From a virus (taxonomy: Duplodnaviria > Heunggongvirae > Uroviricota > Caudoviricetes): a stretch of 55,732 nucleotides of DNA. Within the stretch, counting starts at the first letter, position 1, and each line of letters opens with the position of its first letter. Below are positions 23,936 to 38,127 of the stretch, one piece after another. Below the pieces are notes generated by a model. The model was not told the origin of the DNA. It worked only from the letters and a program-made list of their open reading frames with translations, and did not search any database. Position numbers and translations under genes: made by a program. The stretch covers positions 1 through 55,732 of IMG/VR virus record IMGVR_UViG_2563366819_000003, one strand, 5' to 3'.

Positions 23936-25177
23936 ATGGCTATTGAAAACAAACTCAGTGACAAACTGTTAAAGAGTCTTGTCGGAAAACGGCAGGACAA
24001 ACAAAAAACAATAGCGGATGGGCGCGGGTTGTCTGTGCGTGTAAGCATGGTTGGGGGGATCAGCTTTGTTTTTTACTATCGTCTTGGTGGCAGGGAATCC
24101 CCTCCGGTATGGCTTACACTTGGTCGCTATCCTGACATGTCTCTTGCAACGGCCAGGCGCATGCGTGATCAGTGCCGTGAATGGCTGGCTGAAAATCTGG
24201 ACCCCCGCAGGCAAATAAAACTTGCTGCCGAAAAAACTATGCAACCAGTGACCGTAAGGGATGCGCTGTTTTACTGGTACGACAATCACGCCACAACAGC
24301 CAGAAAAGAGCATGAATATTTAATAAAACGATTTGAAAAGCATATCTTCCCCTATATCGGTGATATGGCTATAGAACAGTGCAAATTACACACATGGCTT
24401 ACCGTCTTTGACAGGATCAAAAAAAATGCGCCTGTTATGTCTGGTGCAATTTTTCTTGATATCAAACAGGCGTTGCGTTTTTGTCGCGTCAGGCAATACA
24501 TCGCGTGCGATCCCTTTGGAGATATTAACGTAAGTTATGTCGGGCGCTCATCCGGTATAAGGGATCGCGTTCTTAATATCAATGAAACCGCTGATGTATG
24601 GTCTTATGCTTACGGTAATAATTTGCTAACTCTGTCATCAATATATAACCGAAGAATAATGGTTATCTGCCTGGTGTTTGGTTGCCGACAGCAGGAGGCG
24701 AGGCTATCCACCTGGGACGAATGGGATTTAAAAAACTGGGTATGGACAGTCCCAAAAGAGCACAGCAAAAACAAGGAGGCTATAGTAAGGCCTGTTCCTG
24801 ACGGAATAAAACAATGGATCGTTAATCTTTACGCAGAAACAAAAAATCGCGGTTATGTTGTCGGTTGTGCTTTGCAAAGGGCGACAATAACAGGGGCTGC
24901 AAACAGAATATGCAGGCGTCTTGGTCATGATACTAATGGCTTGTGGTGCATACATGATTTCAGGCGCACATTTTCCACTACGCTTAATGATATGGGGGCG
25001 GATCCTTATATTGTTGAACTTCTTTTAGGTCATAAAGTGAAAGGGGTTGCTGGTGTTTACAATAAAAGCAGGCATATAAAGAAAAAACTTGAGGTGCTTA
25101 ATATGTGGGTTAATTACCTTAATACGATAGCAGGATTTAACAACAACGTTATCGAGCTTAATAAAGAGGTGGTGTGA
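23936..25177 (+). CDS. int: Tyrosine integrase, P4-type
   Basis: 413 aa; C-terminal catalytic region (HDFRRTFSTTLNDMG...LLGHKVKGVAGVYNKS); at one end of the inserted element adjacent to the repeat. Confidence 0.9.
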   Translation: MAIENKLSDKLLKSLVGKRQDKQKTIADGRGLSVRVSMVGGISFVFYYRLGGRESPPVWLTLGRYPDMSLATARRMRDQCREWLAENLDPRRQIKLAAEKTMQPVTVRDALFYWYDNHATTARKEHEYLIKRFEKHIFPYIGDMAIEQCKLHTWLTVFDRIKKNAPVMSGAIFLDIKQALRFCRVRQYIACDPFGDINVSYVGRSSGIRDRVLNINETADVWSYAYGNNLLTLSSIYNRRIMVICLVFGCRQQEARLSTWDEWDLKNWVWTVPKEHSKNKEAIVRPVPDGIKQWIVNLYAETKNRGYVVGCALQRATITGAANRICRRLGHDTNGLWCIHDFRRTFSTTLNDMGADPYIVELLLGHKVKGVAGVYNKSRHIKKKLEVLNMWVNYLNTIAGFNNNVIELNKEVV

Positions 25178-25178
25178 T

Positions 25179-25436
25179 ATGGCAATTTATTCTCTTGTTG
25201 ATGAAAACGATTTGCGCACAATGAAGGACATTGATCGGTTCATTCGTGAAAAAGAGTGCATAGCACTTACCACGCTGGCAAACTCAACACGCTGGAAAAT
25301 GGAGCTAGCAGGTAAATTCCCGCGACGTATCAAGATCGGTGAACGTGCTGCAGGGTATCGACTTTCAGAGGTTCAGGCATGGATCCGTGGTGAGTGGCAT
25401 CCTGGATGGAAACCTGGAAAAACAAAACAGCAATAA
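25179..25436 (+). CDS. alpA: AlpA-family HTH regulator / excisionase-like protein
   Basis: 85 aa; AlpA-like segment LTTLANSTRWKMELAGKFPRRIKIGERAAGYRLSEVQAWI; directly downstream of the integrase. Confidence 0.8.
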   Translation: MAIYSLVDENDLRTMKDIDRFIREKECIALTTLANSTRWKMELAGKFPRRIKIGERAAGYRLSEVQAWIRGEWHPGWKPGKTKQQ

Positions 25437-25492
25437 CCAGTAAATAATGCCCCTCATCACGAGGGGTTTTTTGTCTATAAGGTAAAAACGCG

Positions 25493-26071
25493 ATGAATAA
25501 AAATATTGCCGTGACGGGCAAGGGGTACGCTCGTCCAGTGAAAAAATTCTGCGATATTCGTGATCTCGTCGTTCTGCGCTTTGATAGTGTGAACGTTCGT
25601 GTGGTGTATCTGAACGGCGATCCGTGGTTTGTTGCAAAAGATGTTTGTGCTGCGCTGGAACTAACCAATTCGCGTACGGCGTTGCAGATGCTTGATGATG
25701 ATGAAAAGGGAGTAAATTTAACTTACACCCCAGGAGGAAATCAGAATATGAGAATTATCTCTGAGTCAGGTTTCTACAAACTAATAGCCCGCAGCCGCAA
25801 AGCAACGACGCCTGGCACATTTGCTCATCGTTTCAGTAACTGGGTATTCAGAAATGTGATACCAGGTATCAGAAAAACGGGGACTTATGGTATCCCGTGG
25901 GGTGCATTACAGGATTTTTCCCGCCGTAAAGAGCAATATCAAATAAGTGCCAGCGAGAAGGGGAGGGAGCTACAGGCATGTAAGCGCAAAAAGCGTGAGC
26001 TGGAGGAAGAAGAAAAAACGCTGATACGTGAATATCAGCCTGAGTTTTACTTTGGTAACCGCATTCAGTGA
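25493..26071 (+). CDS. Bro-N domain protein (antirepressor-like)
   Basis: 192 aa; Bro-N-like core (VRVVYLNGDPWFVAKDVCAALEL...ISESGFYKLIARSRK...FSNWVFRNVIPGIRKTGTY). Confidence 0.65.
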   Translation: MNKNIAVTGKGYARPVKKFCDIRDLVVLRFDSVNVRVVYLNGDPWFVAKDVCAALELTNSRTALQMLDDDEKGVNLTYTPGGNQNMRIISESGFYKLIARSRKATTPGTFAHRFSNWVFRNVIPGIRKTGTYGIPWGALQDFSRRKEQYQISASEKGRELQACKRKKRELEEEEKTLIREYQPEFYFGNRIQ

Positions 26072-26404
26072 CAAAACAAAGGCGACCGCAAAAGGGTCGC
26101 CAGTGGGAACAAGGGAAAACAAAAGCATCACCAACAATGCCACATTTGCGGCTGGTGGGCAATGTGATCAGTCAGATTTGGTTCGTTCCAAGGTTTGCAA
26201 CGAGAGCTTTTTCCTGTGCTCTTTAAGGAATTTCTCAAGAGCAAACGAACAAGGTGCGAATCTTTCTGATTCATGTTCATGCGCTATATTTTTGCGTCGT
26301 CTCTTACGAGTTGGTGATGGTGTTTTGGTTGATTCTGTGTCGCTCATGGTGCTGTCCTGTAAAGCAATGCGCCTGCGTTCCTCAAACTATGGCGCTGATA
26401 TTGG

Positions 26405-26710
26405 CTATTCATGCTCTTTGACCTTGCGTCGCTGGAGTTCTTCACGCGCGACGGTGACGAGTTGCCCGATCTCCTCGGCTGCTTTGATGCCGATTTGTTC
26501 GACCTTAGCCAGGGCATCCAGTGACGACACAAGGGGATTTTCTCCGCTGCCTTCTGCTTGGCGGCGGGCTATTTCTCCGCGCATGGCGGTTACGATAAAT
26601 CCGGCATTGCTTTCACCGTCCAGCTTAACGGATTCCATCCCTTGCATAACATCTAGTGGGACTCTGACAGTTGTCAGTTGTGATTTTGCGTTTTTGTTAG
26701 CCGTTGCCAT
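26405..26710 (-). CDS. Hypothetical protein, divergently transcribed from the satellite replication operon (candidate regulator)
   Basis: 101-aa ORF on minus strand facing a promoter-operator-like region; no clear HTH recognised. Confidence 0.4.
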   Translation of the reverse strand: MATANKNAKSQLTTVRVPLDVMQGMESVKLDGESNAGFIVTAMRGEIARRQAEGSGENPLVSSLDALAKVEQIGIKAAEEIGQLVTVAREELQRRKVKEHE

Positions 26711-26770
26711 TTCTGAAACTCCTAATCATCGGTGTGTTTCAGTATACACAAAAAAAGAAATACAAAAAGC

Positions 26771-26809
26771 CTTGACGTGTGTTTCATGCGCTCATAACAT
26801 GAAACACAC
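26771..26809. promoter_or_regulatory. Promoter/operator candidate: TTGACG -35-like hexamer followed by a 12-bp perfect inverted repeat
   Basis: cttgacg tgtgtttcatg cgctcataa catgaaacacac; inverted repeat 26777..26788 / 26798..26809, between divergent genes. Confidence 0.4.
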
Positions 26810-26900
26810 CGAAAGGATTGTTGAAATACAAAGAGCAACGCCCCGCAGTGCTGGGAACACATACGGGGCGTCTAACCAACAACGTAAACTAGGAGCCGTT

Positions 26901-27098
26901 ATGGTTGCTGTAAATCATATACCACACCTTGTACACACACAAACGGCCTTTGTGTGGCGTTTTCTGGCACTGAGTGCCGGAGAATCTCAAATCATCCACG
27001 TAACCGCCTGGACGGAACGCGAAGCGCGTAGCCGTTGCCCGTCCGGTTGTGTTGCTGTATTCGCTGCAAAAATCCGCCAGGGAGTGAGTCATGCTTAA
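26901..27098 (+). CDS. Hypothetical small protein (65 aa), first gene of rightward satellite operon
   Basis: ATG at 26901 preceded by RBS AGGAG (26891..26895); lies at 3' end of a longer, compositionally odd ORF in the track. Confidence 0.35.
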   Translation: MVAVNHIPHLVHTQTAFVWRFLALSAGESQIIHVTAWTEREARSRCPSGCVAVFAAKIRQGVSHA

Positions 27099-27276
27099 AA
27101 CCTTCCGTGTATTTGCCCGAGCTGTTAACCCAATAGGCCACACAATTGGTATCGCTCAGAATGTGAAGGCTGTTAATGTTCAGACGGCTATTGCTGCGGT
27201 GAGAAGCGAATCATCAGAATATGGCTTATCACAAGTCATTATTTCAGCAGTGTATGAATTAAAAGAGGTGCATTAA
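27091..27276 (+). CDS. Hypothetical small protein
   Basis: 61-aa ORF with RBS GGAG upstream, overlapping neighbours by a few nt (translationally coupled operon). Confidence 0.35.
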   Translation: MLKTFRVFARAVNPIGHTIGIAQNVKAVNVQTAIAAVRSESSEYGLSQVIISAVYELKEVH

Positions 27277-27467
27277 TGCAGGAAATTACATTACACGAAG
27301 CCGCTGAACGTGCGCACCAGACAGAAATTATTTGCCGCCTTCTTGAGGTATACCCGAACAAAATTACAGATGCTGATATATCCGCACTGGCGAGCCTACT
27401 GGCGCGTCTTTCGGGAAGTGTCGCTAGTTTTTTGATTGAGGAAGAAAGTAAGCTGGTGGAGGATTAA
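27276..27467 (+). CDS. Hypothetical small protein
   Basis: 63-aa ORF in tightly packed operon. Confidence 0.35.
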   Translation: MQEITLHEAAERAHQTEIICRLLEVYPNKITDADISALASLLARLSGSVASFLIEEESKLVED

Positions 27468-27689
27468 ATGAATACAGAACGGGAAGTCTTTTTTAAATTG
27501 TTAGCATGTGCAGAAAGTTCATTAACTTTAAATAATTCAGCAAAAGCAATATTAAATATGTGGCTTGATTGCATAAATGACAATGAAGATGCAAATATTG
27601 CTTATGGTCTGTTGTCACTTATTGATGAATCAGCAGAAAAACTCAATGACGCAATAAATAGTGCCCTGCTATCAAATAAGTCGAGTTAA
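27468..27689 (+). CDS. Hypothetical small protein
   Basis: 73-aa ORF in tightly packed operon. Confidence 0.35.
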   Translation: MNTEREVFFKLLACAESSLTLNNSAKAILNMWLDCINDNEDANIAYGLLSLIDESAEKLNDAINSALLSNKSS

Positions 27690-27706
27690 GTCGAGGAATA
27701 AATAAT

Positions 27707-28006
27707 ATGGAAATGAAAAATTCTGGCTTTATTGCCAGCGGCCCAGCTCGACCTGAATTTATGAACGGCGATATTTACCGCGATAAATACGGCGGCACGG
27801 TAACGATTAAAGGCGTGGCAGAACGGCGCATCACTTACCGCCGTGAGGGGTATAGCTATGACTGCGTGATGCCTGTTTATCAGTTCCGGCGTGATTTTTC
27901 CCTGGTATATGCCGCACCCCGCAGTAAGCCCATCAGCAGGGAAAAAGCGTGGGGAAATATCCAGAAAATGAAAACCATGATTAACGGATTCAGAGGTAAA
28001 AAATGA
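27707..28006 (+). CDS. Hypothetical protein
   Basis: 99-aa ORF, stop overlaps primase start (ATGA). Confidence 0.4.
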   Translation: MEMKNSGFIASGPARPEFMNGDIYRDKYGGTVTIKGVAERRITYRREGYSYDCVMPVYQFRRDFSLVYAAPRSKPISREKAWGNIQKMKTMINGFRGKK

Positions 28007-29757
28007 AACTGGCACCGAACGTAAAACAGCAGTCACGCGGCATAAAACACAAAGGAACAGAAGTCATTATTTTTGCGGGTAGTGATGCCTGGGCACACGC
28101 GAAACAATGGCAGGAACATGATGCGCGTATGGCCGGAGATAATGAGCCTCCTGTGTGGCTTGGGGAGCAGCAGCTATCCGAACTGGATAATCTGCAAATT
28201 GTGCCGGAAGGCCGAAAATCAGCACGCATATACAGGGCCGGATATCTTGCGCCTGTAATGATAAAGGCGATTGGTCAGAAGCTGGCGGCAGCAGGCGTAC
28301 AGGATGCAAATTTTTATCCTGAGGGTATGCACGGCCAGGAGGTGCAGAACTGGCGCGAATATCTGGCCCGTGAACGCCAGAATCTTTCTGATGGTCTGGT
28401 CATTGAGCTTCCGGTAAAGCAAAAGGCGCAACTTTCGCAGATGGCGGACAGTGAGCGCGCGCAGTTGCTTGCCGATCGCTTTGATGGCGTTTGCGTACAT
28501 CCTGAAAGTGAAATCGTTCACGTATGGCGCGGCGGGGTATGGTGTCCGGTCAGCACAATGGAACTTAGCCGCGAAATGGTGGCGATCTATTCAGAGCACA
28601 GGGCCACTTTCAGCAAGCGCGTAATCAATAACGCCGTGGAAGCGTTAAAAGTTATTGCCGAACCAATGGGCGAGCCGTCTGGCGATTTGCTGCCGTTCGC
28701 CAATGGTGCGCTTGACCTGAAAACGGGGGAATTTTCCCCGCACACGCCGGAGAACTGGATCACCACGCACAACGGCATTGAGTACACGCCACCAGCACCA
28801 GGGGAGAACATCCGCGATAACGCGCCAAACTTTCATAAATGGCTTGAGCACGCAGCCGGAAAAGACCCGCGCAAGATGATGCGTATATGTGCCGCGCTGT
28901 ACATGATTATGGCGAACCGGTACGACTGGCAGATGTTTATTGAGGCCACCGGAGATGGCGGGAGCGGTAAAAGTACATTCACACACATAGCCAGCCTTCT
29001 GGCAGGGAAACAGAACACGGTAAGCGCTGAAATGACATCGCTTGATGATGCTGGTGGACGTGCGCAGGTTGTCGGGAGTCGTCTTATCGTCCTGGCTGAC
29101 CAGCCGAAATATACAGGCGAAGGAACGGGCATCAAGAAAATCACAGGCGGCGACCCCGTGGAAATTAACCCGAAATATGAAAAGCGTTTCACGGCGGTAA
29201 TCAGGGCGGTGGTGCTGGCGACCAACAACAACCCGATGATATTCACCGAACGGGCCGGAGGTGTGGCACGTCGTCGCGTGATTTTCCGTTTCGACAATAT
29301 CGTCAGTGAGGCCGAAAAAGACAGGGAGCTACCGGAAAAGATTGCGGCTGAAATCCCCGTTATTATCCGCCGATTGCTGGCGAACTTTACCGACCCTGAG
29401 AAGGCACGGGCTTTACTACTGGAACAGCGTGACGGTGATGAAGCACTGGCAATAAAGCAACAGACGGATCCGGTTATTGAGTTTTGCCAGTTCCTGAATT
29501 TTCTGGAGGAAGCGCGCGGCCTGATGATGGGTGGCGGTGGTGATTCAGTGAAGTACACGACCAGGAACAGCCTTTACCGCGTCTATCTGGCGTTTATGGC
29601 ATACGCGGGCAGGAGCAAACCGCTAAACGTGGCTGAGTTCAGCAAGGCCATGAAGCCAGCGGCGAAAGTTTACGGGCATGAATATATTACGCGAAAAGTT
29701 AAGGGAGTAACGCAGACCAACGCAATTACAACAGACGATTGCGACGCGTTTTTATAA
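28003..29757 (+). CDS. Primase-helicase (P4 alpha-like; primase domain plus P-loop NTPase)
   Basis: 584 aa; Walker A GDGGSGKST; overall architecture of phage/plasmid primase P4-family proteins; followed by iteron-like repeats. Confidence 0.85.
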   Translation: MKLAPNVKQQSRGIKHKGTEVIIFAGSDAWAHAKQWQEHDARMAGDNEPPVWLGEQQLSELDNLQIVPEGRKSARIYRAGYLAPVMIKAIGQKLAAAGVQDANFYPEGMHGQEVQNWREYLARERQNLSDGLVIELPVKQKAQLSQMADSERAQLLADRFDGVCVHPESEIVHVWRGGVWCPVSTMELSREMVAIYSEHRATFSKRVINNAVEALKVIAEPMGEPSGDLLPFANGALDLKTGEFSPHTPENWITTHNGIEYTPPAPGENIRDNAPNFHKWLEHAAGKDPRKMMRICAALYMIMANRYDWQMFIEATGDGGSGKSTFTHIASLLAGKQNTVSAEMTSLDDAGGRAQVVGSRLIVLADQPKYTGEGTGIKKITGGDPVEINPKYEKRFTAVIRAVVLATNNNPMIFTERAGGVARRRVIFRFDNIVSEAEKDRELPEKIAAEIPVIIRRLLANFTDPEKARALLLEQRDGDEALAIKQQTDPVIEFCQFLNFLEEARGLMMGGGGDSVKYTTRNSLYRVYLAFMAYAGRSKPLNVAEFSKAMKPAAKVYGHEYITRKVKGVTQTNAITTDDCDAFL

Positions 29758-29759
29758 TT

Positions 29760-30010
29760 TTTTGTAAAAGCCATCTACCCCATCTACCTGAACAAAATAA
29801 ACGCATATTATTCAACATGATAAGTGGGTATAGGGCTAGGTAGAAGGCTAATAAAAGCTCTCTACCTCTTCTACCTGATTTTATCAGTTTCAGGTAGCAG
29901 GGTAGACGGCAGGTAGAGGAGTCAAAAAGCTATCTACCCGCTGAAAGCCGCGCCATTACTGACATGATGAGCATTCGGGTAGATGGGTAGAGGGGGGGAG
30001 GCACAACTAA
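29760..30010. repeat. Iteron-like repeats (GGTAGA / TCTACC family) downstream of primase: candidate satellite replication origin
   Basis: Multiple direct and inverted copies: catctaccccatctacctg, ctaggtagaaggc, ctctacctcttctacctg, caggtagcagggtagacggcaggtagagga, gctatctacccgc, gggtagatgggtagag. Confidence 0.5.
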
Positions 30011-30103
30011 AAACTTTTTAAACGAGGGGGGTGAAAATAAATGCGCATACATAAAAATCACTTAACAAACATGCCAGCCGAAGACATGAATCAGGGGTGA
30101 CAA

Positions 30104-30355
30104 ATGACCAAAATTCGCAGAGACAGAACACAGGCAAAATATAAAGCGTTAGACATGACAGAGCTTTCCTTAAAGGTGGCAATCAAAGCGATAGACCACC
30201 ACACACGGGCAGGATACGCGAAGGAACATCCCGATCTGATAAGCGCATTCATGACCACAGCAGCGGCAAACTTTGCCACGCTGACAGAACGGGAGATTGC
30301 CGAAGCGGAACAGGTGACAACCATCAATGTTAAAACCGGAGAGCAGACAGCATGA
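30104..30355 (+). CDS. Hypothetical protein
   Basis: 83-aa ORF upstream of and overlapping the SSB gene start. Confidence 0.35.
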   Translation: MTKIRRDRTQAKYKALDMTELSLKVAIKAIDHHTRAGYAKEHPDLISAFMTTAAANFATLTEREIAEAEQVTTINVKTGEQTA

Positions 30356-30774
30356 CAGCACAGATAGCGGCTTACGGGCGGCTGGTGGCTGACCCGCAGT
30401 TAAAGACCACCAGCAAAGGGACACAAATGGCGATGGCGAGTATGGCGGTTCCCCTGCCGTGCAGCCAGGCAGATGACGGAACGGCGACGATGTGGTTATC
30501 CGTCCTGGCGTTTGGCAGACAGGCCGACGCACTGGCAAAACACCACAAAGGCGAACTGGTGAGCGTGGCGGGTAACATGCAGGTAAGCCAGTGGACAGGC
30601 CAGAACGGCGAAACGCGGCGGGGCTGGCAGGTTATCGCAGACAGCGTAATCAGTGCGCGAACGGCGCGACCGGGCGGCAAAAAAGGCCAGCAGGGGCAGG
30701 CCACTGACGCACTGAACAGGGCAAAACAACAGTCGGGGAATGATGATCCGTACGGCGATAATATACCGTTTTAA
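30352..30774 (+). CDS. ssb: Single-stranded DNA-binding protein (SSB-like)
   Basis: 140 aa; OB-fold-like body, Gly/Gln-rich linker and acidic C-terminal tip ...NDDPYGDNIPF resembling the SSB DDDIPF tail. Confidence 0.7.
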   Translation: MTAQIAAYGRLVADPQLKTTSKGTQMAMASMAVPLPCSQADDGTATMWLSVLAFGRQADALAKHHKGELVSVAGNMQVSQWTGQNGETRRGWQVIADSVISARTARPGGKKGQQGQATDALNRAKQQSGNDDPYGDNIPF

Positions 30775-30985
30775 ATTCTGCAAACAAAAAGATGCCGGAA
30801 AAAAATATATTTTCCGGCATGCTACATAAATCCCGACCAAAGGAAGTAAATACATTAACACGAATTATCAGCACTGAAGTTGTTACGGCATATTTTATAC
30901 AACATTGCACTTGGTTGCATGTATTCGCATAGCAGACATCGGTAATAGAATATATTCACAATTATTTGTAATGAATGTAAAGAGG

Positions 30986-32032
30986 ATGAGTATGGTTGAT
31001 TTATATTCGCCTACACAGCTTGTGCAGGTGGCTAATGCTGAAGATGTGCAAAAAAAATTAAATGCGTTGTTTACCAGTTTGTTTTTCACTCGCTCGGTAA
31101 TGTTTGAATCGAGAGACATTATTCTTGATACGATCGACGATCCAAATATCCCGATCGCGGCGTTTTGCTCTCCTATGGTGGGCAGTAAAGTTTCACGAGA
31201 TGAGGGATACGAATCAAAAACAATTCGTCCAGGTTATATGAAGCCGAAAAGCAGCATTGATCCAAATAAGTTAGCTGTGCGCCCTGCTGGTGTGTCACCT
31301 GAGCAATACAATGCTTTTGGGGCGCGTAATATTAAAGTTAAACAGGCGATTGTAAATCAGGCTAAAGCTATTCGTGCACGTATTGAATGGCTTGCTGTTC
31401 AGGCAATCACAACGGGGAAAAATATCATTGAGGGCGATGGTATTGAACGTTATGAGCTGGACTGGAATATAAAACCACAAAATATCATCACTCAGTCTGG
31501 CGGTACTGAGTGGTCAGGTAAGGATAAAGAAACTTTTGATCCAAATGATGATATTGAGAGCTACGCAGAATTTAGTGAGGGCGTCACTAATATCATCATT
31601 ATGGGTGGTAATGTATGGAAGAAATACCGTTCATTCAGAGCGATAAAAGAGGCTTTGGATACCCGTCGTGGTTCTAATTCCGAACTGGAAACGGCCCTTA
31701 AAGACCTTGGTGATTCGGTGAGTTTTAAAGGGTATATGGGCGATGTTGCGATTGTTGTTTACAGCGGGCGTTATACCGACGAGGACGGAACAGAAAAACA
31801 TTTCCTTGATCCTGATTTGATGGTGCTTGGCAATACGGCTCTTCAGGGGATTGTCGCCTATGGCGGTATTCAGGATCCGGAGCTAATCCGAATGGGGCTG
31901 ACTAAAGCCGAACTTGCACCGAAAAACTATATTGTGCCTGGTGATCCGGCTATTGAATATGTGCAGACACATTCAGCACCACAGCCAATACCGGCCCGCA
32001 TCAATCGTTTTGTTACCGTTCGCATTGGCTAA
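30986..32032 (+). CDS. Major capsid protein, divergent homologue of lambda E
   Basis: Starts MSMVDLY (lambda E MSMYTTA); shares blocks ITQSGGTEWS, DTRRGSNSELETA.KDLG, GDVAIVVYSG with the helper E at 37102..38127 (roughly half identical by eye). Start could also be 30992. Confidence 0.85.
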   Translation: MSMVDLYSPTQLVQVANAEDVQKKLNALFTSLFFTRSVMFESRDIILDTIDDPNIPIAAFCSPMVGSKVSRDEGYESKTIRPGYMKPKSSIDPNKLAVRPAGVSPEQYNAFGARNIKVKQAIVNQAKAIRARIEWLAVQAITTGKNIIEGDGIERYELDWNIKPQNIITQSGGTEWSGKDKETFDPNDDIESYAEFSEGVTNIIIMGGNVWKKYRSFRAIKEALDTRRGSNSELETALKDLGDSVSFKGYMGDVAIVVYSGRYTDEDGTEKHFLDPDLMVLGNTALQGIVAYGGIQDPELIRMGLTKAELAPKNYIVPGDPAIEYVQTHSAPQPIPARINRFVTVRIG

Positions 32033-32041
32033 GGGGGAGCA

Positions 32042-32383
32042 ATGGCTACTCATTACACTGAACTCATGGCTGGCACTGAAGCACTGGTGACTACGCTGGG
32101 GATATTTTCAGCTAATAAAGGGGTAATTCCTGCATTTACGCCACTGATGCAGGAAGATGCAACAGGTGCACTGGTGATATGGGATGGTTCGAGCGTAGGT
32201 AAAGCGGTTTATGTTTCCGCTGTACAAATCGACACAGCGAAAAAAACACAGGCACAGGTTTATAAGACAGGTGTTTTAAATGTTGATGCTCTGAACTGGC
32301 CTGAGTCTGTAAAAGAACTGTCGGCAAAGGTTGCCGCGTTTGTTGGCTCAGGTATTTCTGTTCAGCCGCTGGCTCGTGTGTAA
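32042..32383 (+). CDS. Head decoration protein, lambda D-like
   Basis: 113 aa, directly downstream of the E-like gene (same order as D-E reversed in lambda); similar size and pattern to gpD (FTPLM..., ...AV...GTAISV-like C-terminus). Confidence 0.65.
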   Translation: MATHYTELMAGTEALVTTLGIFSANKGVIPAFTPLMQEDATGALVIWDGSSVGKAVYVSAVQIDTAKKTQAQVYKTGVLNVDALNWPESVKELSAKVAAFVGSGISVQPLARV

Positions 32384-32394
32384 AGGGGGATACA

Positions 32395-32778
32395 ATGCAG
32401 AATCATTACAATGACCTTAAGCCAATTGCCGAAATGATGTATCCGGATCCAGCAGTAGAGGAATTAAAGGCTATTGCTGACAAAATGCGTTTAAGTGAAC
32501 GCCTTGTTGATATGAATCAGGTGATGGAACTTACTACCCTTAGCCGTCGCACATTGCTAAACCTTGAGGCTCGCGGAGAGTTCCCCGAACGCGTACAGGT
32601 TACGGAAGGGCGTAAGGCCTGGTATTTAAGTGAAGTGATCGACTGGATAAACAATATTCCTCGATCTTCTGAATATTGCCGCGTACCTGTCCCAAAAAAG
32701 CCAGATGCGGCGCTATGCCTCAAGATTGAGCGTGTACGTCGCAATGCACGGGATGGTCGCTATAAGTTGATTGGTTGA
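32395..32778 (+). CDS. AlpA-like HTH protein (second copy in element)
   Basis: 127 aa; segment LTTLSRRTLLNLEARGEFPERVQVTEGRKAWYLSEVIDWI has the AlpA-family pattern. Confidence 0.55.
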   Translation: MQNHYNDLKPIAEMMYPDPAVEELKAIADKMRLSERLVDMNQVMELTTLSRRTLLNLEARGEFPERVQVTEGRKAWYLSEVIDWINNIPRSSEYCRVPVPKKPDAALCLKIERVRRNARDGRYKLIG

Positions 32779-32799
32779 TGAAATTAGGGCCTGTTCTGG

Positions 32800-32875
32800 C
32801 TGGCGGGTCCTTTCCGGCGATCCGGTAGGCTACGGGGCGGCGACCTCGCGGGTTTTCGCTATTTATGAGCCTTTT
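32800..32875 (+). other. cos: Satellite cos site: cosQ/cosN identical to helper (cosN gggcggcgacct at 32835..32846), downstream cosB-side sequence divergent
   Basis: gggtcctttccggcgatccggtaggctacggggcggcgacctcgcgggttttcgctatttatga matches helper 20042..20106 except for a short patch; sequence after atttatga differs completely from helper. Confidence 0.85.
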
Positions 32876-32994
32876 TCGGGTGCTGGTGGTGGTTTTGTTG
32901 TTCGCTCTATCTCTATGAATAAAAAGGAAAAGATAAAGCCAATACACCAACCTGAAACATTACTTAAGTGGGGATATTGATGAAATCGCACCTG

Positions 32995-33522
32995 ATGAAC
33001 AAAAAAAACATGGCGCAAAGCTGCCGTGTAAGTGCGACAGCGTTCGACAAGTGGGGAGTGACTCCCGTTGAACGTAAAGGCCGCGAGGCGTTTTATGATG
33101 TTGCCAGCGTAATAGACAATCGGGTTAGCAATGCAATTAACCAGATTACAGACGACAAAGGCGAGATTGATGATGATGAACTCCTACGAGTCAGGATCAG
33201 ATTGCTGACAGCACAGGCAGAGGCGCAGGAGCTTAAAAACGAGCGCGAACGCGGCGACGTTATTGATACAGCGTTTTGTATATACGTGCTTTCAAAATTG
33301 GCGAGTCAGATTTCTTCAATCATGGACAGCCTGCCGCTTGCCATGACAAGGAAGTTTCCCGACATGAAGCCGTCTATGCTGGATGGACTGAAAAAAGAAG
33401 TTATCAGAGCCTGTAACGCATGCGCAAAACTTGACGAAAACATACCGCTGATGCTGTCCGATTATCTGATGGAAACTGCCGGAAACGTACCGGATAAGTT
33501 GCAGCCGAATAAAGATAAGTAA
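32995..33522 (+). CDS. Terminase small subunit, Nu1-like with divergent N-terminal DNA-binding domain
   Basis: C-terminal two-thirds resembles Nu1 (ELKNERERGDVIDTAFCIYVLSKLASQISSIMDSLPLAMTRKFP... vs helper ELKNARDSAEVVETTFCTFVLSRIAGEIASILDGIPLSVQRRFP...); N-terminal about 50 aa differ. Start chosen at MNKKNMAQ. Confidence 0.8.
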   Translation: MNKKNMAQSCRVSATAFDKWGVTPVERKGREAFYDVASVIDNRVSNAINQITDDKGEIDDDELLRVRIRLLTAQAEAQELKNERERGDVIDTAFCIYVLSKLASQISSIMDSLPLAMTRKFPDMKPSMLDGLKKEVIRACNACAKLDENIPLMLSDYLMETAGNVPDKLQPNKDK

Positions 33523-33533
33523 CGTAGTACGCT

Positions 33534-33815
33534 ATGACTGAATCCGAAATACTGCGATTAATCCGCCGTGCTTGTGGAATCAGCAAGCAGCATGACGAAC
33601 AGGCCACGCAGCCGGACAGCGTGACCGCAGATAATTATGTGCGTGTAGTGGCTGAGGTGATGCGCCGTGACGGTATTGAGCTTAACGGCGTGGATATGCG
33701 CAACATACGAACAAGAGTCCTTGAGTTGCTGGCATATCGTCGCCGTTCTCAACAACGGAGGGAGAGCGCGAAAAATACTTACCAGTGGAAGAAGCCGGAA
33801 CGATTGCGGCGGTAA
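33534..33815 (+). CDS. Hypothetical basic protein
   Basis: 93-aa ORF immediately after TerS; Arg-rich C-terminus. Confidence 0.35.
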   Translation: MTESEILRLIRRACGISKQHDEQATQPDSVTADNYVRVVAEVMRRDGIELNGVDMRNIRTRVLELLAYRRRSQQRRESAKNTYQWKKPERLRR

Positions 33816-33824
33816 CTTGCTGAT

Positions 33825-34222
33825 ATTCCCGATAACGCAAAATTGCGCTGGCTGACTTGTTGCATTGCAAAAAGTTAAGCAGGAAGGCACGGCCTGTAAG
33901 ATGGGATGCAGTAAGTAGTTCAAGGCTACCTTGTGCTGGCACGCACAGTTAAGCCGTCGGTGCTGGATATCCCCCACTGGGGGAAAAGCTGGCTACATCC
34001 CTCACATCTGAGGACTGATAACGCGACATTGCGCTGGCTGGCAAAGTGCAAAATTGCACGATGGCCTAACCCATTGATTATTTCGAAAACCTGCAATGCA
34101 GGAAATCGGGGAAGTAAGCCTAAGCTATTGATTGTTTCGAAAACCCCCATTGGGGGATGTCGGGAAAGTAAGACTAACCCATTGATTCTTCCACAATCCT
34201 CAATTTGAGGAGGCCGGAACGT
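33825..34222. repeat. Array of short hairpin-forming palindromes with differing stems in an ORF-poor region
   Basis: cgcaaaattgcg (about 33834), cccccactggggg (33971..33983), cctcacatctgagg (34009..34022), gtgcaaaattgcac (about 34055), cctgcaatgcagg (34100..34112), cccccattggggg (34154..34166), cctcaatttgagg (34207..34219); three share a flanking motif attgatt..ttcgaaaac. Confidence 0.45.
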
Positions 34223-34630
34223 CTACATAGCTGCATCGCCGTAATGATGATTCAGCCCACCAGCCAAATCAGCACAGCAACGACAGAATAGCCCGACACA
34301 GAAAAACCACGAATATGGGGTTTTTGTTATGACATGGTCATGATGACCACTCATACAAAACAGGTAAAGCCCACCAGCCTGATTAAAGGTTAACCGGAAA
34401 AAAGCCAGGTATCCAATCTCGATATGGGGATCCCTATATCGACATTAACGCTCACTAAAACTGTGCATATATGCATAGAAAAAGCATCCACCAGCTTTAT
34501 GACGGATGCCGCTCATCTTATAAATAATCGTGTATTGCAGTGTGTATTGCGACTCCTTTAAACGATAGGTCTGAGCATTCGTAATGTACTGTTTTTAAAT
34601 TTTATTTTTTCCTGTCTTTTCATAAAGGCG

Positions 34631-35404
34631 ATGTATGCCGCCACCATTGAGAGTGAGCTGGATACGCAGTCAGCGATGGATTTTATTCTGGGCGCGAACA
34701 GTCAGGAGCAGCGGGAAAGGCTGACCGGCTGGATTGGTGAAATTGCCGCGTATTACGCCGCAGCGCCGGTCCGGCTGGGAGGCGCAAAAGTACCGCACCT
34801 GATGCCGGGTGACTCACTGAACCTGCAGACGGCTCAGGATACGGATAACGGCTACTCCGTGTTTGAGCAGTCACTGCTGCGGTATATCGCTGCCGGGCTG
34901 GGTGTCTCGTATGAGCAGCTTTCCCGGAATTACGCCCAGATGAGCTACTCCACGGCACGGGCCAGTGCGAACGAGTCGTGGGCGTACTTTATGGGGCGGC
35001 GAAAATTCGTCGCATCCCGTCAGGCGAGCCAGATGTTTCTGTGCTGGCTGGAAGAGGCCATCGTTCGCCGCGTGGTGACGTTACCTTCAAAAGCGCGCTT
35101 CAGTTTTCAGGAAGCCCGCAGTGCCTGGGGGAACTGCGACTGGATAGGCTCCGGTCGTATGGCCATCGATGGTCTGAAAGAAGTTCAGGAAGCGGTGATG
35201 CTGATAGAAGCCGGACTGAGTACCTACGAGAAAGAGTGCGCAAAACGCGGTGACGACTATCAGGAAATTTTTGCCCAGCAGGTCCGTGAAACGATGGAGC
35301 GCCGCGCGGCTGGTCTTAAACCGCCCGCCTGGGCGGCTGCGGCATTTGAATCCGGGCTGCGACAATCAACAGAGGAGGAGAAGAGTGACAGCAGAGCTGC
35401 GTAA
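34631..35404 (+). pseudogene. B: Portal protein B, C-terminal fragment (257 aa), in frame with N-terminal fragment if the insert is removed
   Basis: MYAATIESELDTQSAMDFILGANSQEQ... continues lambda B exactly where the 22906..23735 fragment stops. Confidence 0.9.
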
Positions 35405-36704
35405 TCTCCCGCATATTGCCAGTATGGCCTTTAATGAGCCGCTGATGCTTGAACCCGCCTATGCGCGGGTTTTCTTTTGTGCGCTTGCAGGCCAGCTTGG
35501 GATCAGCCGCCTGACGGATGCGGTGTCCGGCGACAGCCTGACTGCCCAGGAGGCACTCGCGACGCTGGCATTATCCGGTGATGATGACGGACCACGACAG
35601 GCCCGCAGTTATCAGGTCATGAACGGCATCGCCGTGCTGCCGGTGTCCGGCACGCTGGTCAGCCGGACGCGGGCGCTGCAGCCGTACTCGGGGATGACCG
35701 GTTACAACGGCATTATCGCCCGTCTGCAACAGGCTGCCAGCGATCCGATGGTGGACGGCATTCTGCTCGATATGGACACGCCCGGCGGGATGGTGGCGGG
35801 GGCATTTGACTGCGCTGACATCATCGCCCGTGTGCGTGACATAAAACCGGTATGGGCGCTTGCCAACGACATGAACTGCAGTGCAGGTCAGTTGCTTGCC
35901 AGTGCCGCCTCCCGGCGTCTGGTCACGCAGACCGCTCGGACAGGCTCCATCGGCGTCATGATGGCTCACAGTAATTACGGTGCTGCGCTGGAGAAACAGG
36001 GCGTGGAAATCACGCTGATTTACAGCGGCAGCCATAAGGTGGATGGCAACCCCTACAGCCATCTTCCGGATGACGTCCGGGAGACACTGCAGTCCCGGAT
36101 GGATGCAACCCGCCGGATGTTTGCGCAGAAGGTGTCGGCATATACCGGCCTGTCCGTGCAGGCTGTGCTGGATACCGAGGCTGCAGTGTACAGCGGTCAG
36201 GAGGCCATTGATGCCGGACTGGCTGATGAACTTGTCAACAGCACCGATGCGATCACCGTTATGCGTGAGGCACTGGATGCACGTAAATCCCGTCTCTCAG
36301 GAGGGCGAATGACCAAAGAGACTCAATCAACAACTGTTTCAGCCACTGCTTTGCAGGCTGACGTTACTGACGTGGTGTCAGCGACAGAGGGCGAGAACGC
36401 CAGCGCGGCGCAGCCGGACGTGAACGCACAGATCACCGCAGCGGTTGCGGCAGAAAACAGCCGCATTATGGGGATCCTCAATTGTGAGGAGGCTCACGGA
36501 CGCGAAGAACAGGCCCGCGTGCTGGCAGAAACCCCCGGTATGACCGTGGAAACGGCCCGCCGCATTCTGGCCGCAGCACCACAGAGTGCACAGGCGCGCA
36601 GTGACACTGCGCTGGATCGTCTGATGCAGGGGGCACCGACACCGCTGGCGGCAGGTAACCCGGCATCTGATGCCGTTAACGATTTGCTGAACACACCAGT
36701 GTAA
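35385..36704 (+). CDS. C: Capsid assembly protease/scaffold C (Nu3 scaffold encoded in-frame in 3' portion)
   Basis: Matches lambda C from (M/V)TAELRNLPHIASMAFNEPLML...; start is GTG at 35385 overlapping B end. Confidence 0.88.
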   Translation: MTAELRNLPHIASMAFNEPLMLEPAYARVFFCALAGQLGISRLTDAVSGDSLTAQEALATLALSGDDDGPRQARSYQVMNGIAVLPVSGTLVSRTRALQPYSGMTGYNGIIARLQQAASDPMVDGILLDMDTPGGMVAGAFDCADIIARVRDIKPVWALANDMNCSAGQLLASAASRRLVTQTARTGSIGVMMAHSNYGAALEKQGVEITLIYSGSHKVDGNPYSHLPDDVRETLQSRMDATRRMFAQKVSAYTGLSVQAVLDTEAAVYSGQEAIDAGLADELVNSTDAITVMREALDARKSRLSGGRMTKETQSTTVSATALQADVTDVVSATEGENASAAQPDVNAQITAAVAAENSRIMGILNCEEAHGREEQARVLAETPGMTVETARRILAAAPQSAQARSDTALDRLMQGAPTPLAAGNPASDAVNDLLNTPV

Positions 36705-36713
36705 GGGATGTTT

Positions 36714-37046
36714 ATGACGAGCAAAGAAACCTTTACCCATTACCAGCCGCTGGGCAACAGTGACCCGGCTCATACCGCAACCGCGCCAGGCGGATTGAGT
36801 GCGAAAGCGCCTGCAATGACCCCGCTGATGCTGGACACCTCCACCCGTAAGCTGGTTGCGTGGGATGGCACCACCGACGGTGCTGCTGTCGGCATTCTTG
36901 CTGTTGCTGCTGACCAGACCAGCACCACGCTGACGTTCTACAAGTCCGGCACGTTCCGTTATGAGGATGTGCTCTGGCCGGAGGCTGCCAGCGACGAGAC
37001 GAAAAAACGGACCGCGTTTGCCGGAACGGCAATCAGCATCGTTTAA
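36714..37046 (+). CDS. D: Head decoration protein D
   Basis: 110 aa, [42 protein letters not shown]... as lambda D. Confidence 0.95.
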
Positions 37047-37101: not shown

Positions 37102-38127
37102 ATGTCGATGTACACAACCGCCCAGCTGCTGGCGGCAAATGAGCAGAAATTTAAGTTTGATCCGCTGTTTCTGCGTCTCTTTTTCCGTGAGAGCTATCCC
37201 TTCACCACGGAGAAAGTCTATCTCTCACAAATTCCGGGGCTGGTAAACATGGCGCTGTACGTTTCGCCGATTGTTTCCGGTGAGGTTATCCGCTCCCGTG
37301 GCGGCTCCACCTCTGAATTTACGCCGGGATATGTCAAGCCGAAGCATGAGGTGAATCCGCAGATGACCCTGCGTCGCCTGCCGGATGAAGATCCGCAGAA
37401 TCTGGCGGACCCGGCTTACCGCCGCCGTCGCATCATTATGCAGAACATGCGTGACGAAGAGCTGGCCATTGCCCAGGTCGAAGAGATGCAGGCAGTTTCT
37501 GCCGTGCTTAAGGGCAAATACACCATGACCGGTGAAGCCTTCGATCCGGTTGAGGTGGATATGGGCCGCAGTGAGGCGAATAACATCACGCAGTCCGGCG
37601 GCACGGAGTGGAGCAAGCGTGACAAGTCCACGTATGACCCGACCGACGATATCGAAGCCTACGCGCTGAACGCCAGCGGAGTGGTGAATATCATCGTGTT
37701 TGATCCGAAAGGCTGGGCGCTGTTCCGTTCCTTCAAAGCCGTCAGGGAGAAGCTGGATACTCGTCGCGGCTCTCATTCCGAGCTGGAGACAGCGGTGAAA
37801 GACCTGGGCAAAGCGGTGTCCTACAAGGGGATGTATGGCGATGTGGCCATCGTCGTGTATTCCGGACAGTACGTGGAAAACGGCGTCAAAAAGAACTTCC
37901 TGCCGGACAACACGATGGTGCTGGGGAACACTCAGGCACGCGGTCTGCGCACCTATGGCTGCATTCAGGATGCGGACGCACAGCGCGAAGGCATTAACTC
38001 CTCTGCCCGTTACCCGAAAAACTGGGTGACCACCGGCGATCCGGCGCGTGAGTTCACCATGATTCAGTCAGCACCGCTGATGCTGCTGGCTGACCCTGAT
38101 GAGTTCGTGTCCGTACAACTGGCGTAA
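37102..38127 (+). CDS. E: Major capsid protein E
   Basis: 341 aa from MSMYTTAQLLAANEQKFKFDPLFLRLFFRESYPF..., as lambda E. Confidence 0.96.
   Translation: MSMYTTAQLLAANEQKFKFDPLFLRLFFRESYPFTTEKVYLSQIPGLVNMALYVSPIVSGEVIRSRGGSTSEFTPGYVKPKHEVNPQMTLRRLPDEDPQNLADPAYRRRRIIMQNMRDEELAIAQVEEMQAVSAVLKGKYTMTGEAFDPVEVDMGRSEANNITQSGGTEWSKRDKSTYDPTDDIEAYALNASGVVNIIVFDPKGWALFRSFKAVREKLDTRRGSHSELETAVKDLGKAVSYKGMYGDVAIVVYSGQYVENGVKKNFLPDNTMVLGNTQARGLRTYGCIQDADAQREGINSSARYPKNWVTTGDPAREFTMIQSAPLMLLADPDEFVSVQLA

Follow-up and report, generated by a model that had tools for sequence, protein, structure and literature searches.

A satellite within portal gene B of a lambda-like prophage and its capsid and decoration protein homologs

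Satellites that encode capsid protein homologs

The presence of a capsid gene is a familiar trait of the PICIs: 21 of the 29 reference islands surveyed carry such a gene (PMC10111431), and SatelliteFinder lists it among five PICI core components (PMC10085698). The island described here, which carries homologs of the lambda major capsid protein E and decoration protein D, shares with EcCICFT073 the order of primase, SSB, capsid homolog, decoration homolog, small wHTH gene, cos and packaging-specificity gene. EcCICFT073 is the prototype of the E. coli PICIs and the nearest relative studied so far. Its capsid and decoration homologs (c1499 and c1500) are 55% and 54% identical to those of our island, both fall in the satellite clade defined below, and c1499 is the protein of the crystal structure PDB 3BQW. 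The two elements differ in that EcCICFT073 is integrated in the chromosome, encodes Rpp instead of a Nu1-like small terminase (TerS) and carries other E/D alleles, and its integrase is just 40% identical to that of the island. It was reported that all the DNA packaged by EcCICFT073 is phage-sized, and that deletion of either the capsid or the decoration homolog leaves island transfer and interference with lambda unchanged (PMC6092414, PMC6739421). Literature searches returned no later functional study of the E. coli PICI capsid homologs.

A second reference is provided by the helper-embedded PICIs (HE-PICIs) described by Tommasini, Mageeney and Williams (2023), specifically by the Eco567.11capE and B:Phage_portal_2 groups. 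Like the island presented here, these elements are co-oriented in a lambda late gene, display the same spacing of a doubled TGTATTGC motif, are organized in four zones and have a capsid gene of their own. However, the HE-PICI type example interrupts E and is devoid of terS, whereas our island lies in the portal gene B and encodes a Nu1-like TerS.

Other satellites share only some of these traits. SaPIbov5 is also a cos-type satellite encoding a homolog (Ccm) of the helper major capsid protein, but in this case a role in small capsids, as a component of the pentamers, has been demonstrated, the protein has no decoration partner and belongs to an unrelated sequence family, and the host is Gram-positive. 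PmCI172, from Pasteurella, is a Gram-negative PICI with a capsid protein homolog, although its helper is Mu-like, and small capsids have been observed there. The capsid-forming PICIs, such as EcCIEDL933, have in common with it the int, alpA and primase backbone as well as their own capsid protein and TerS; in contrast, portal, protease, head-tail connectors, TerL and HNH are all their own as well, and tails are the only parts that they steal. Finally, P4 resembles the island as a cos satellite in its size (11 kb), its P4/D5-type primase and its AlpA-type regulator, yet it uses the external scaffold Sid and encodes no capsid protein homolog. Inspection of the ORF list and of Pfam and PHROG matches revealed no portal, protease, head-tail adaptor/connector, TerL or HNH ORFs between positions 23728 and 34632, and the scanned island ORFs gave no match to the P4 families Sid, Psu and Delta (Pfam, PHROG). 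The absence of portal, protease, TerL and connector genes indicates that the element belongs neither with the capsid-forming PICIs nor with the P4-like satellites, in agreement with the original prediction, made from the sequence of this DNA, which had set it apart from both. The novelty implied in that prediction did not stand: a satellite with its own capsid and decoration genes was already on record in 2018 and 2023, and this is how classical Gram-negative PICIs are normally built, as the count of reference islands given above illustrates.

The island, its helper prophage and its packaging genes

The window, i.e., the whole stretch of 55,732 nucleotides that was analyzed, contains a complete lambda-like prophage with a 10,897-bp satellite (core to core) inserted in its portal gene B (Table 1), a size that fits the PICI range of about 10-20 kb. 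A direct repeat of 8 bp, AAGGCGAT, marks both ends of the island (23728-23735 and 34625-34632), and the insertion breaks portal B between residues 276 and 277, that is, at around positions 236-241 (interpolated) of the Pfam Phage_portal_2 profile. In-silico excision regains a portal ORF of 533 aa, which, together with the size of the element and its repeats, substantiates the satellite label it had initially been given. An unoccupied insertion site is present in a metagenome scaffold (L009). The main island genes are all placed on the plus strand, as is the helper late operon, and follow a four-zone layout leading from int-alpA to Bro, then to primase-SSB and to the late zone, of which the E-like/D-like pair constitutes the conserved capsid module. 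The two copies of the doubled TGTATTGC match the HE-PICI motif tgTGTATTGCantgTGTATTGCa and its published spacing; for this HE-PICI-specific motif, the reported distances from the attP centre are 132 +/- 2 bp for the downstream copy and 81 +/- 2 bp for the other one (PMC10111431).

Table 1. Positions of the island and helper features discussed in the text.
Feature	Position	Strand	Remarks
Helper cos	20041..20154	+	cosN 20072-20083
Helper portal gene B, 5' part (interrupted)	22906..23735	+
Helper-embedded PICI	23728..34632	+	Co-oriented with helper gene B; 8-bp core at both ends
Doubled TGTATTGC motif, copy 1	23865..23885	+	~134 bp downstream of attP core
Satellite tyrosine integrase	23936..25177	+	Pfam Arm-DNA-bind_3 and Phage_integrase
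AlpA regulator/excisionase	25179..25436	+	Pfam Phage_AlpA 2.8e-13
Bro-N domain protein (Bro zone)	25493..26071	+	Pfam Bro-N 4.9e-20
D5/P4-type primase-helicase (replication zone)	28003..29757	+	Pfam D5_N, DUF5906, Pox_D5
Single-strand DNA-binding protein	30352..30774	+	Pfam SSB 5.5e-16
Satellite E-like major capsid protein	30992..32032	+	346 aa; Pfam Phage_cap_E (start 30986 would give 348 aa)
Satellite D-like head decoration protein	32042..32383	+	113 aa; Pfam HDPD
Second AlpA-like wHTH protein	32395..32778	+	Phage_AlpA 1.3e-08; phrog_2790; directly upstream of satellite cos
Satellite cos	32804..32917	+	cosN GGGCGGCGACCT at 32835-32846
Satellite Nu1-like small terminase (TerS)	32968..33522	+	Pfam Phage_Nu1 3.5e-24, C-terminal half
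Conserved small ORF	33534..33815	+	phrog_1561
Doubled TGTATTGC motif, copy 2	34530..34550	+	78-98 bp upstream of attP core
Helper portal gene B, 3' part	34633..35404	+
Helper head protease/scaffold (C/Nu3)	35385..36704	+	Pfam Peptidase_S49
Helper decoration protein D	36714..37046	+	Pfam HDPD 3.8e-22
Helper major capsid protein E	37102..38127	+	Pfam Phage_cap_E 1.3e-70

Taking the five core components of de Sousa (2023) and the PICI features of Fillol-Salom (2018) as a reference, the core set is present: an inward-reading terminal int, an adjoining AlpA gene, a primase, a capsid gene, and a small terminase plus cos. Pairwise comparisons showed that the integrase has 88% identity with that of an Edwardsiella HE-PICI occupying this portal site and 54% with that of an HE-PICI at the capsid-gene site, versus 38-46% with those of chromosomal PICIs, while the primase is 97.8% identical to that of EcCICFT073. 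Considering the att core and the restoration of the portal, the doubled motif, the Pfam content, the relatives of the primase and the integrase, and the complete helper prophage, the island can be assigned, on sequence grounds, to the classical Gram-negative PICIs, and among them to the helper-embedded ones (Tommasini 2023). The genomes listed contain the whole element at 99.8-99.9% identity, and a minimum of 80% of its sequence is found in 53 complete E. coli genomes. In E. coli APEC O2-211, the identity is 99.9% for the island together with its junctions. Neither tail nor lysis genes were found within the island (ORF list, Pfam and PHROG scans), an Rfam scan of the 19.5-38.5 kb region (E<=0.1) gave no match, so that the C4/isrK-type immunity RNAs of some PICIs were not detected, and the window is devoid of tRNA genes.

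The satellite cosN is an exact copy of the helper cosN, and in the cosN core block 62 of about 66 positions agree between both sites, whereas the cosB side has diverged. The satellite TerS, which probably starts at an internal ATG near 32995, is 35% identical to helper Nu1 and has diverged in its N-terminal, DNA-binding part. A protein of the Rpp type was also sought in the island, but the ORF at the equivalent position bears no similarity to that of CFT073 and is this Nu1 homolog instead. The copied cosN, the diverged cosB side and a TerS with a diverged N-terminal part suggest that the island may have a private packaging specificity. The place of the wHTH gene after D is also kept in the Serratia and E. 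coli relatives.

The E-like and D-like proteins and their lineage

Two E-family and two D-family genes had been predicted in the window, and all four correspond to intact ORFs with Pfam Phage_cap_E or HDPD matches. In the case of the satellite E-like gene, predicted to span 30986..32032, the gene held but its start did not: the ATG at 30992 is likelier, because the Shine-Dalgarno sequence AAGAGG (30980-30985) abuts 30986 and sits 6 nt before 30992, and because the database proteins are 346 residues long. Both satellite genes have good ribosome-binding sites, that of D (GGGGGAG) being found right behind the E stop codon. As anticipated, the satellite proteins are homologous to the helper pair yet divergent from it: the E-like protein is 42% identical to helper E over its full length (E=3e-86), and the D-like protein 38% identical to helper D (E=1e-17). 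The former matches PF03864 (Phage_cap_E) across residues 14-345 (2.9e-41, 142 bits versus a gathering cut-off of 22.9) and the latter PF02924 (HDPD; 5.4e-15, 56 bits versus 29.1). Among PDB sequences, the D-like protein matches 1TD0/1TD3 (5e-16) and lambda gpD (1e-11), with 1TD0, the SHP-type protein of phage 21, as the nearest solved structure.

The AlphaFold2 model of the E-like protein (pLDDT 82) shows a full-length HK97 fold, with Foldseek TM values of 0.89 to 3BQW, 0.86 to 7SJ5 (lambda gpE) and 0.83 to 7VI9, and the indels between satellite and phage E comprise just 1-3 residues. This structural comparison, proposed along with the original prediction, placed the divergence mainly in the N-arm, the spine helix and the P-domain. 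Identity between the two E clades amounts to 0.31-0.42 in these three parts and to 0.50 in the A-domain, while within each clade they are conserved as well as the rest of the protein, except for the N-arm in the satellite clade (0.46). Since the N-arm, spine helix and P-domain make the capsomer-to-capsomer contacts, an altered lattice or head size would be possible. An attempt to read head size from the monomer model was abandoned, as a complete fold with 1-3-residue indels says nothing decisive about the triangulation number. The modeled HK97 fold and tiny indels, together with the adjacent matched D and the protease/scaffold gene of a Lelliottia relative (see below), suggest that satellite E is, as predicted, a real shell protein.

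A tblastn search against 50,697 phage records yielded no E above about 42% and no D above 41% identity to the satellite pair. The candidates for a phage donor, namely the ~20-kb "phage" records with the best E-values, were discarded, for they were myovirus fragments with a normal C-D-E head module and no satellites. The E proteins fall into two clean clades, of which the satellite one includes sequences from Escherichia, Salmonella, Serratia, Edwardsiella, Cedecea and Lelliottia. Identity inside this clade falls to 45%, and the lineage is as diverse as that of the phages. Divergent members were found in int-alpA-primase-E-D islands in the four contexts inspected (EcCICFT073, Serratia, Edwardsiella and Lelliottia). 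In all seven islands examined, E precedes D, the reverse of the phage order; these E/D-bearing islands measure about 10.3-11.5 kb (n=7; lengths estimated from flanking genes). A matched D always adjoins the satellite E, and in the Lelliottia relative an S49 protease/scaffold gene has been added behind E-D. A chimeric E protein, P0043, was also encountered, which is a clean chimera whose parental genes share no more than 10 nt of exact identity. It was set aside as evidence of exchange between helper and satellite, as it occurs in one metagenome scaffold and its junction is found in no complete E. coli genome.

The dN/dS ratios, calculated for the window and L008 against each other and against L007 after dropping divergent pairs, in which synonymous sites are saturated, are 0.05-0.09 for satellite E and 0.06-0.18 for satellite D. 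The satellite pair is thus under strong purifying selection, and both ORFs are intact in hundreds of genomes. The possibility that the E-like gene is a pseudogene, which the original prediction had named as a reason to abandon it, does not agree with this pattern. As judged from sequence comparison, the pair represents an allele family of lambda E and D that forms an old, satellite-specific lineage, private to the satellites as had been proposed, and not a fresh copy of the helper genes. The old separate lineage, the E-D order, the purifying selection and the divergence of the N-arm and P-domain are what is newly seen here.

A possible role for the pair

We propose, giving the whole account about an even chance, that the E/D pair of this HE-PICI builds normal T=7 heads on helper parts, each holding four island units. 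Upon induction, Q-antiterminated helper late transcription would read through nu1-A-W-B' into the island, which would excise at AAGGCGAT, restoring the portal gene, and replicate from its own primase and origin. The island Nu1-like TerS would then bind the private cosB and recruit helper TerL, which would cut the helper-identical cosN. Satellite E and D, as a matched shell-plus-cement pair, would form lambda-type heads on the helper portal, protease and scaffold, with satellite E used alone or mixed with helper E, so that the island would be provided with a partly self-sufficient head supply. These heads would most likely be of normal T=7 size and filled by four tandem units (43.6 kb).

The original prediction reached a different conclusion, i.e., that an 11-kb genome cannot fill a T=7 head and that smaller heads would therefore be made. 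This reasoning overlooked the packaging of multimers: lambda packages within a range of 78-105%, and 4 x 10.9 = 43.6 kb falls inside it. The normal head size is favored by this fit and by the lengths of the islands, as well as by the phage-sized DNA and the null deletions of EcCICFT073, which likewise speak against the small-head idea (PMC6092414), keeping in mind that those deletions concern a pair 55/54% identical to ours, in an Rpp-type island and not in the TerS-bearing sublineage. If the pair contributed a meaningful share of the shell, deletion of c1499 or c1500 might be expected to lower transfer; because no drop was observed, the proposed benefit would be conditional. We interpret the absence of a phenotype as a sign of redundancy in the laboratory, and not of a pair without function, considering the old satellite-specific lineage, the strong purifying selection and the location of the differences at capsomer-capsomer contact parts. 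The pair would be redundant with helper E and D under such conditions, and its conservation suggests that it may matter with helpers in which the shell genes have been interrupted or are defective or of low compatibility.

Examples of small capsids exist among satellites with capsid homologs: Ccm takes up the pentamer positions in the small procapsids of SaPIbov5 (PMC8569155), and PmCI172, which encodes a capsid homolog that has been proposed to redirect head size, makes small capsids (PMC6092414, PMC6893505). Satellite E, with D, might likewise build or nucleate small heads on the helper portal and scaffold, taking one unit and excluding the helper genome. The fact that the clades diverge most in the P-domain, spine helix and N-arm would suit such redirection, and a T=3 lambda-type head would hold, as estimated by rough volume scaling, some 11-13 kb. 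Work by Katsura from 1983 is also said to have found that single missense changes in lambda E can yield small-head mutants. Nevertheless, a T=4 head of about 17 kb (from the P2/P4 ratio) suits neither one nor two 10.9-kb units, the full-length fold with its tiny indels contains no sequence or structure feature hinting at a changed triangulation number, and EcCICFT073 packages only phage-sized DNA, with transfer and interference indifferent to the loss of either gene, all of which makes size redirection unlikely. PICIs commonly interfere with their helpers, and the A-domain, responsible for within-capsomer contacts, is the part nearest to phage E (0.50-0.59 identity), so that mixed capsomers would be possible; the pair could poison the heads of the helper or of other lambda-like phages in a dominant-negative manner, or divert capsid-sensing defences, with a gain for the host or the island and not for the building of island particles. 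We regard this as quite improbable, since the deletion of c1499 or c1500 did not relieve the interference with lambda, which is explained by Rpp, and a pure poison needs neither a co-evolving decoration partner nor the protease/scaffold of the Lelliottia relative.

The late zone of the PICIs is dynamic, and there are documented cases of late-gene clusters captured from prophages (PMC10111431). In line with the capture of late genes envisaged by Tommasini et al., the pair could consist of recently captured or backup helper genes devoid of a specialized role, and a spare copy of E could be of help in most HE-PICIs of that survey, which interrupt E. In the present island, however, the interrupted gene is B, the closest phage or helper E or D reaches about 42% at most, the gene order is reversed with respect to phages in each of the seven islands, the lineage equals that of the phages in diversity and purifying selection is strong, so such a passive origin is very improbable. 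Even harder to believe is that the genes are unexpressed relics in decay: the lack of phenotype of the EcCICFT073 deletions could be read in this way, but it is at odds with ORFs intact in hundreds of genomes, dN/dS values of 0.05-0.18 and good ribosome-binding sites on both genes.

The locus as found is a textbook case of a described class, an HE-PICI with the usual capsid and decoration homologs. A bolder version, which we consider rather unlikely, is that in the TerS-bearing sublineage satellite E and D make their own shell on the helper portal, protease/scaffold, TerL and tail, the P-domain, E-loop, N-arm and matched D having diverged enough to segregate from helper E, perhaps with a smaller shell that takes just one 10.9-kb unit. 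If this were true, such hybrid-head satellites would stand between the classical PICIs, which steal everything, and the capsid-forming PICIs, which steal tails only. In either case, the gene concerned is the commonest one in the late zone of Gram-negative PICIs, and both a crystal structure, available from 2008 on, and clean deletion mutants are at hand for it.

Two capsid and decoration gene pairs in one prophage

The + strand of the window carries a late operon of lambda type (cos, nu1, A, W, an interrupted B, C/Nu3, D and E), as deduced from the ORF map. Inside the interruption of the portal gene B lie a second E-family and a second D-family gene, at the positions where the original prediction had placed them. 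All four E and D genes score well over the curated cut-offs of Pfam Phage_cap_E or HDPD, and pairwise comparison of the inner and outer copies gave 42% identity over the whole length for E (E=3e-86) and 38% for D (E=1e-17), confirming that the satellite copies are homologous yet divergent. The satellite E-like gene more likely starts at the ATG at 30992 than at 30986, because an AAGAGG ribosome-binding site lies 6 nt before the former but abuts the latter, and because the database proteins have 346 residues. The satellite E and D genes share one frame, separated at 32030-32044 by TAA and three codons; P0005, a 463-residue database protein, contains both Pfam domains and has the length of an E-D read-through fusion, and may represent a sequencing error or a stop-codon variant.

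Features of the window, with position, strand and basis of assignment
Feature	Position	Strand	Basis
DndB-like protein, cargo gene near the helper integrase end	2061-3125		
Inverse autotransporter (helper), 1302 aa, between P and ninB	9879-13787		
OmpC-like porin, cargo gene between Q and the lysis genes	16149-17231	-	
cosN (helper)	20072-20083		
nu1 (helper)	20261-20806	+	ORF map
A (helper)	20781-22706	+	ORF map
W (helper)	22703-22909	+	ORF map
B (helper portal)	sense lost after residue 276; remainder resumes ~10.9 kb on, ends 35404	+	ORF map
8-bp direct repeat, first copy	23728-23735		
E-like (satellite)	30992-32032	+	Pfam Phage_cap_E
D-like (satellite)	32042-32383	+	Pfam HDPD
cos and Nu1-like TerS (satellite)	32804-33522	+	
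cosN (satellite)	32835-32846		
Three tandem 54-bp repeats	34064-34225		
8-bp direct repeat, second copy	34625-34632		
D (helper)	36714-37046	+	Pfam HDPD
E (helper)	37102-38127	+	Pfam Phage_cap_E

The helper prophage appears complete, with integrase, repressor, O/P, Q, lysis, head and tail genes and tail fibres. The domains of its autotransporter, IAT_beta and repeated Big_1/Invasin_D3, are those of an intimin/invasin-like adhesin, and the gene looks like large virulence-type cargo.

A helper-embedded island with its own packaging signals

The insertion is flanked by the 8-bp direct repeat AAGGCGAT and measures 10,897 bp (core to core). When its flanks were joined in silico, an unbroken 533-aa portal protein resulted, and exactly this empty site was found in a metagenome scaffold (L009, 4432 bp). 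All island genes run on the + strand. They specify an integrase of the tyrosine family, AlpA, a Bro-N protein, a primase of D5/P4 type, SSB and several conserved small ORFs, and a late part has the E-like/D-like pair, another AlpA-like gene, cos, a Nu1-like small terminase and one further small ORF. By ORF list and Pfam/PHROG scans, genes for portal, protease, connector and large terminase are absent from the island, as are those for tail and lysis. Judged by gene content, its layout is that of a classical Gram-negative PICI: all five core components used by SatelliteFinder (PMC10085698) are present, namely integrase, regulator, primase, capsid morphogenesis gene and small terminase, and the primase shares 97.8% identity with its counterpart in EcCICFT073, the prototype E. 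coli PICI. Because the island lies within a lambda late gene and reads in the same direction, it was assigned to the helper-embedded class (HE-PICI) defined by Tommasini, Mageeney and Williams (PMC10111431). The diagnostic doubled motif TGTATTGC occurs in two copies, ~134 bp downstream and 78-98 bp upstream of the core (published distances, 132 +/- 2 and 81 +/- 2 bp; PMC10111431), and the portal is split around position 236-241 of the Pfam portal profile, as interpolated, close to B:Phage_portal_2:241, a site named by the same authors (PMC10111431). The island integrase shares 88% identity with its counterpart in an Edwardsiella tarda island, whose helper has its portal gene split at the same place; the island and its junctions recur at 99.8-99.9% identity in the genomes listed, and at least 80% of the island is present in 53 complete E. 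coli genomes. The identification is near certain.

The island is a mosaic: compared with the 97.8% of the primase, identity to EcCICFT073 is 55/54% for E/D and 40% for the integrase. An E/D module 97% identical to that of the window occurs with a different integrase in L008, the HE-PICI of E. coli 14EC020, which is inserted in a helper capsid gene, and an 84% identical one in a chromosomal E. coli island at cspD/clpS. At the position held in the window island by the small terminase gene, L008 has a DUF262/HEPN gene pair (11297-13013), likely anti-phage defence cargo. Between the last satellite ORF of the window and the attachment site, each of the tandem 54-bp repeats holds a short palindrome (cctgcaatgcagg, cccccattggggg and cctcaatttgagg); these repeats could be protein-binding sites or terminator-like hairpins.

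As for packaging, the island cosN is an exact copy of the 12-nt helper cosN, and the core block flanking it matches at 62 of ~66 positions, whereas the cosB side is unrelated. The island Nu1 homolog has kept the C-terminal half, which in lambda Nu1 serves self-assembly and gpA binding, while its N-terminal DNA-binding part has diverged. This combination argues that the island borrows the helper large terminase and has a private packaging specificity, predicted to be conferred by a true TerS homolog, unlike EcCICFT073, which uses the Rpp adaptor (PMC6739421).

The two cosN are co-oriented, the satellite's 12.8 kb downstream of the helper's, in a composite prophage of approximately 55 kb, above the upper packaging limit of lambda. 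Without excision, no portal protein would be made; given the split gene, the second cos and the excess length, helper heads could be assembled and filled only after excision. Q-antiterminated late transcription of the helper would run from nu1-A-W-B' directly into the island, and would express satellite E/D before helper C-D-E; a matching read-through was proposed by Tommasini et al. for their capsid-gene example (PMC10111431).

A separate lineage of satellite capsid proteins

In a search of 5.8 billion proteins, identities to the E-like protein ran unbroken from 100% to ~52% and then dropped to ~42%, and full-length matches clustered into a satellite and a phage clade with a between-clade mean of 42%. 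All divergent satellite-clade members whose context was inspected (CFT073, Serratia, Edwardsiella, Lelliottia and two E. coli islands, at cspD/clpS and inside a helper E gene) lie in int-alpA-primase-E-D islands, and none of 50,697 phage genome records held an E above ~42% or a D above 41% identity to the satellite pair. Gene order is E then D in seven of seven islands and D then E in phages, so the pair is not a recently captured helper segment. Where synonymous sites were unsaturated, dN/dS was 0.05-0.09 for E and 0.06-0.18 for D, denoting strong purifying selection, and both genes have good ribosome-binding sites.

The capsid and decoration homologs of EcCICFT073, c1499 and c1500, were reported by Fillol-Salom et al. 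(PMC6092414). Located in CFT073, they are 55% (E) and 54% (D) identical to the satellite pair, which is nearer to them than either is to any helper protein, and they are ordered as in the window island, downstream of primase and SSB. For the E-like protein, the best match in both sequence and fold is the crystal structure of c1499 (PDB 3BQW, available since 2008). Of the late genes in Gram-negative PICIs, the one met most often is a capsid gene, which 21 of 29 reference islands possess, and the founding example of Tommasini et al. was an own-capsid-gene PICI located within its helper's capsid gene (PMC10111431).

Alignment and structure prediction, proposed at the outset for the E proteins, gave a complete HK97 fold for satellite E (AlphaFold2; pLDDT 82, pTM 0.83; TM-score 0.89 against 3BQW and 0.83-0.86 against lambda gpE) and placed the divergence in inter-capsomer regions. 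When the clades are compared, the A-domain reaches an identity of 0.50, against 0.31-0.42 for the N-arm, E-loop, spine helix and C-terminal P-domain; indels are of 1-3 residues and confined to the N-arm, and most of 17 fixed substitutions affect the spine helix or the final strands of the P-domain. Conservation within clades is about even over the regions, save for a looser N-arm in the satellite clade. In HK97-fold shells the N-arm, E-loop, spine helix and P-domain make the capsomer-capsomer contacts, and in lambda gpD binds to a site formed by them. On this basis, satellite E and D look like a co-adapted pair with its own lattice interface.

Two further sequences bear on this module. In Lelliottia sp. 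SL45, an island adjoining fis (L006, 10001-12752) combines E and D with a protease/scaffold of the S49 family that shares 51% identity with helper C, and has a head-completion-type gene near alpA. A protease/scaffold beside E-D is sensible only if the E protein builds real procapsids, and this island suggests a graded series from classical to capsid-forming PICIs on lambda-type head genes. In L009, where an uninterrupted portal gene and C are followed by helper D, a chimeric E and satellite D, the E gene (2801-3829) cleanly joins window 37102-37805 to 31656-32032: residues 1 to ~222 are helper-type and the remainder is 100% identical to satellite E. The crossover lies in the conserved LDTRRGS block. 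Exact identity between the two parental genes extends over no more than 10 nt, which argues against a simple k-mer assembly artefact; the junction is absent from complete E. coli genomes.

Head size and the role of the satellite pair

In the original prediction, a genome of 11 kb was too small for a T=7 head, and the pair might therefore build smaller ones. The premise is correct for a monomer; the conclusion does not follow, since lambda packages from cos to cos once the head holds ~78-105% of 48.5 kb, and four island units (43.6 kb) fit, three (32.7 kb) falling short of this range and five exceeding it. All seven E/D-bearing islands measure roughly 10.3-11.5 kb, as estimated from flanking genes, in the middle of the four-unit range. 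In EcCICFT073, the nearest experiment, every packaged DNA was phage-sized, and both interference with lambda and transfer by resident prophages were unaltered when c1499 or c1500 was deleted (PMC6092414); Dokland's review concludes likewise (PMC6893505). Small heads, thus unsupported by that experiment, seem unlikely to us, although EcCICFT073 is not of the TerS type, so that islands such as that of the window are a separate case, a capsid homolog redirects head size in SaPIbov5 (PMC8569155) and probably in PmCI172, and the clade-specific changes in E sit in lattice-contact regions. The deletion data, together with the presence of a matched D, make a poison or decoy role more doubtful still. 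The lineage of its own, the reversed gene order and the strong purifying selection render passive capture of helper late genes highly improbable, and with the good ribosome-binding sites they leave almost no room for a pseudogene.

What stands of the earlier interpretation is a private, functional pair, with its own lineage and under purifying selection. Because four units fit a lambda head and EcCICFT073 gave phage-sized DNA and null deletions, the best-supported reading, to which we give about an even chance, is a matched shell-and-cement module that would assemble on helper portal, protease and scaffold into heads of normal size. Such a module would be redundant with helper E/D in the laboratory, and useful when the helper shell genes are broken, interrupted or poorly matched. 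The novelty initially implied for the pair has to be given up, as the feature, the island class and the crystal structure of a homolog were all already in print. The pair is ordinary for its island class, and the remaining interest lies in what the PICI capsid module does.
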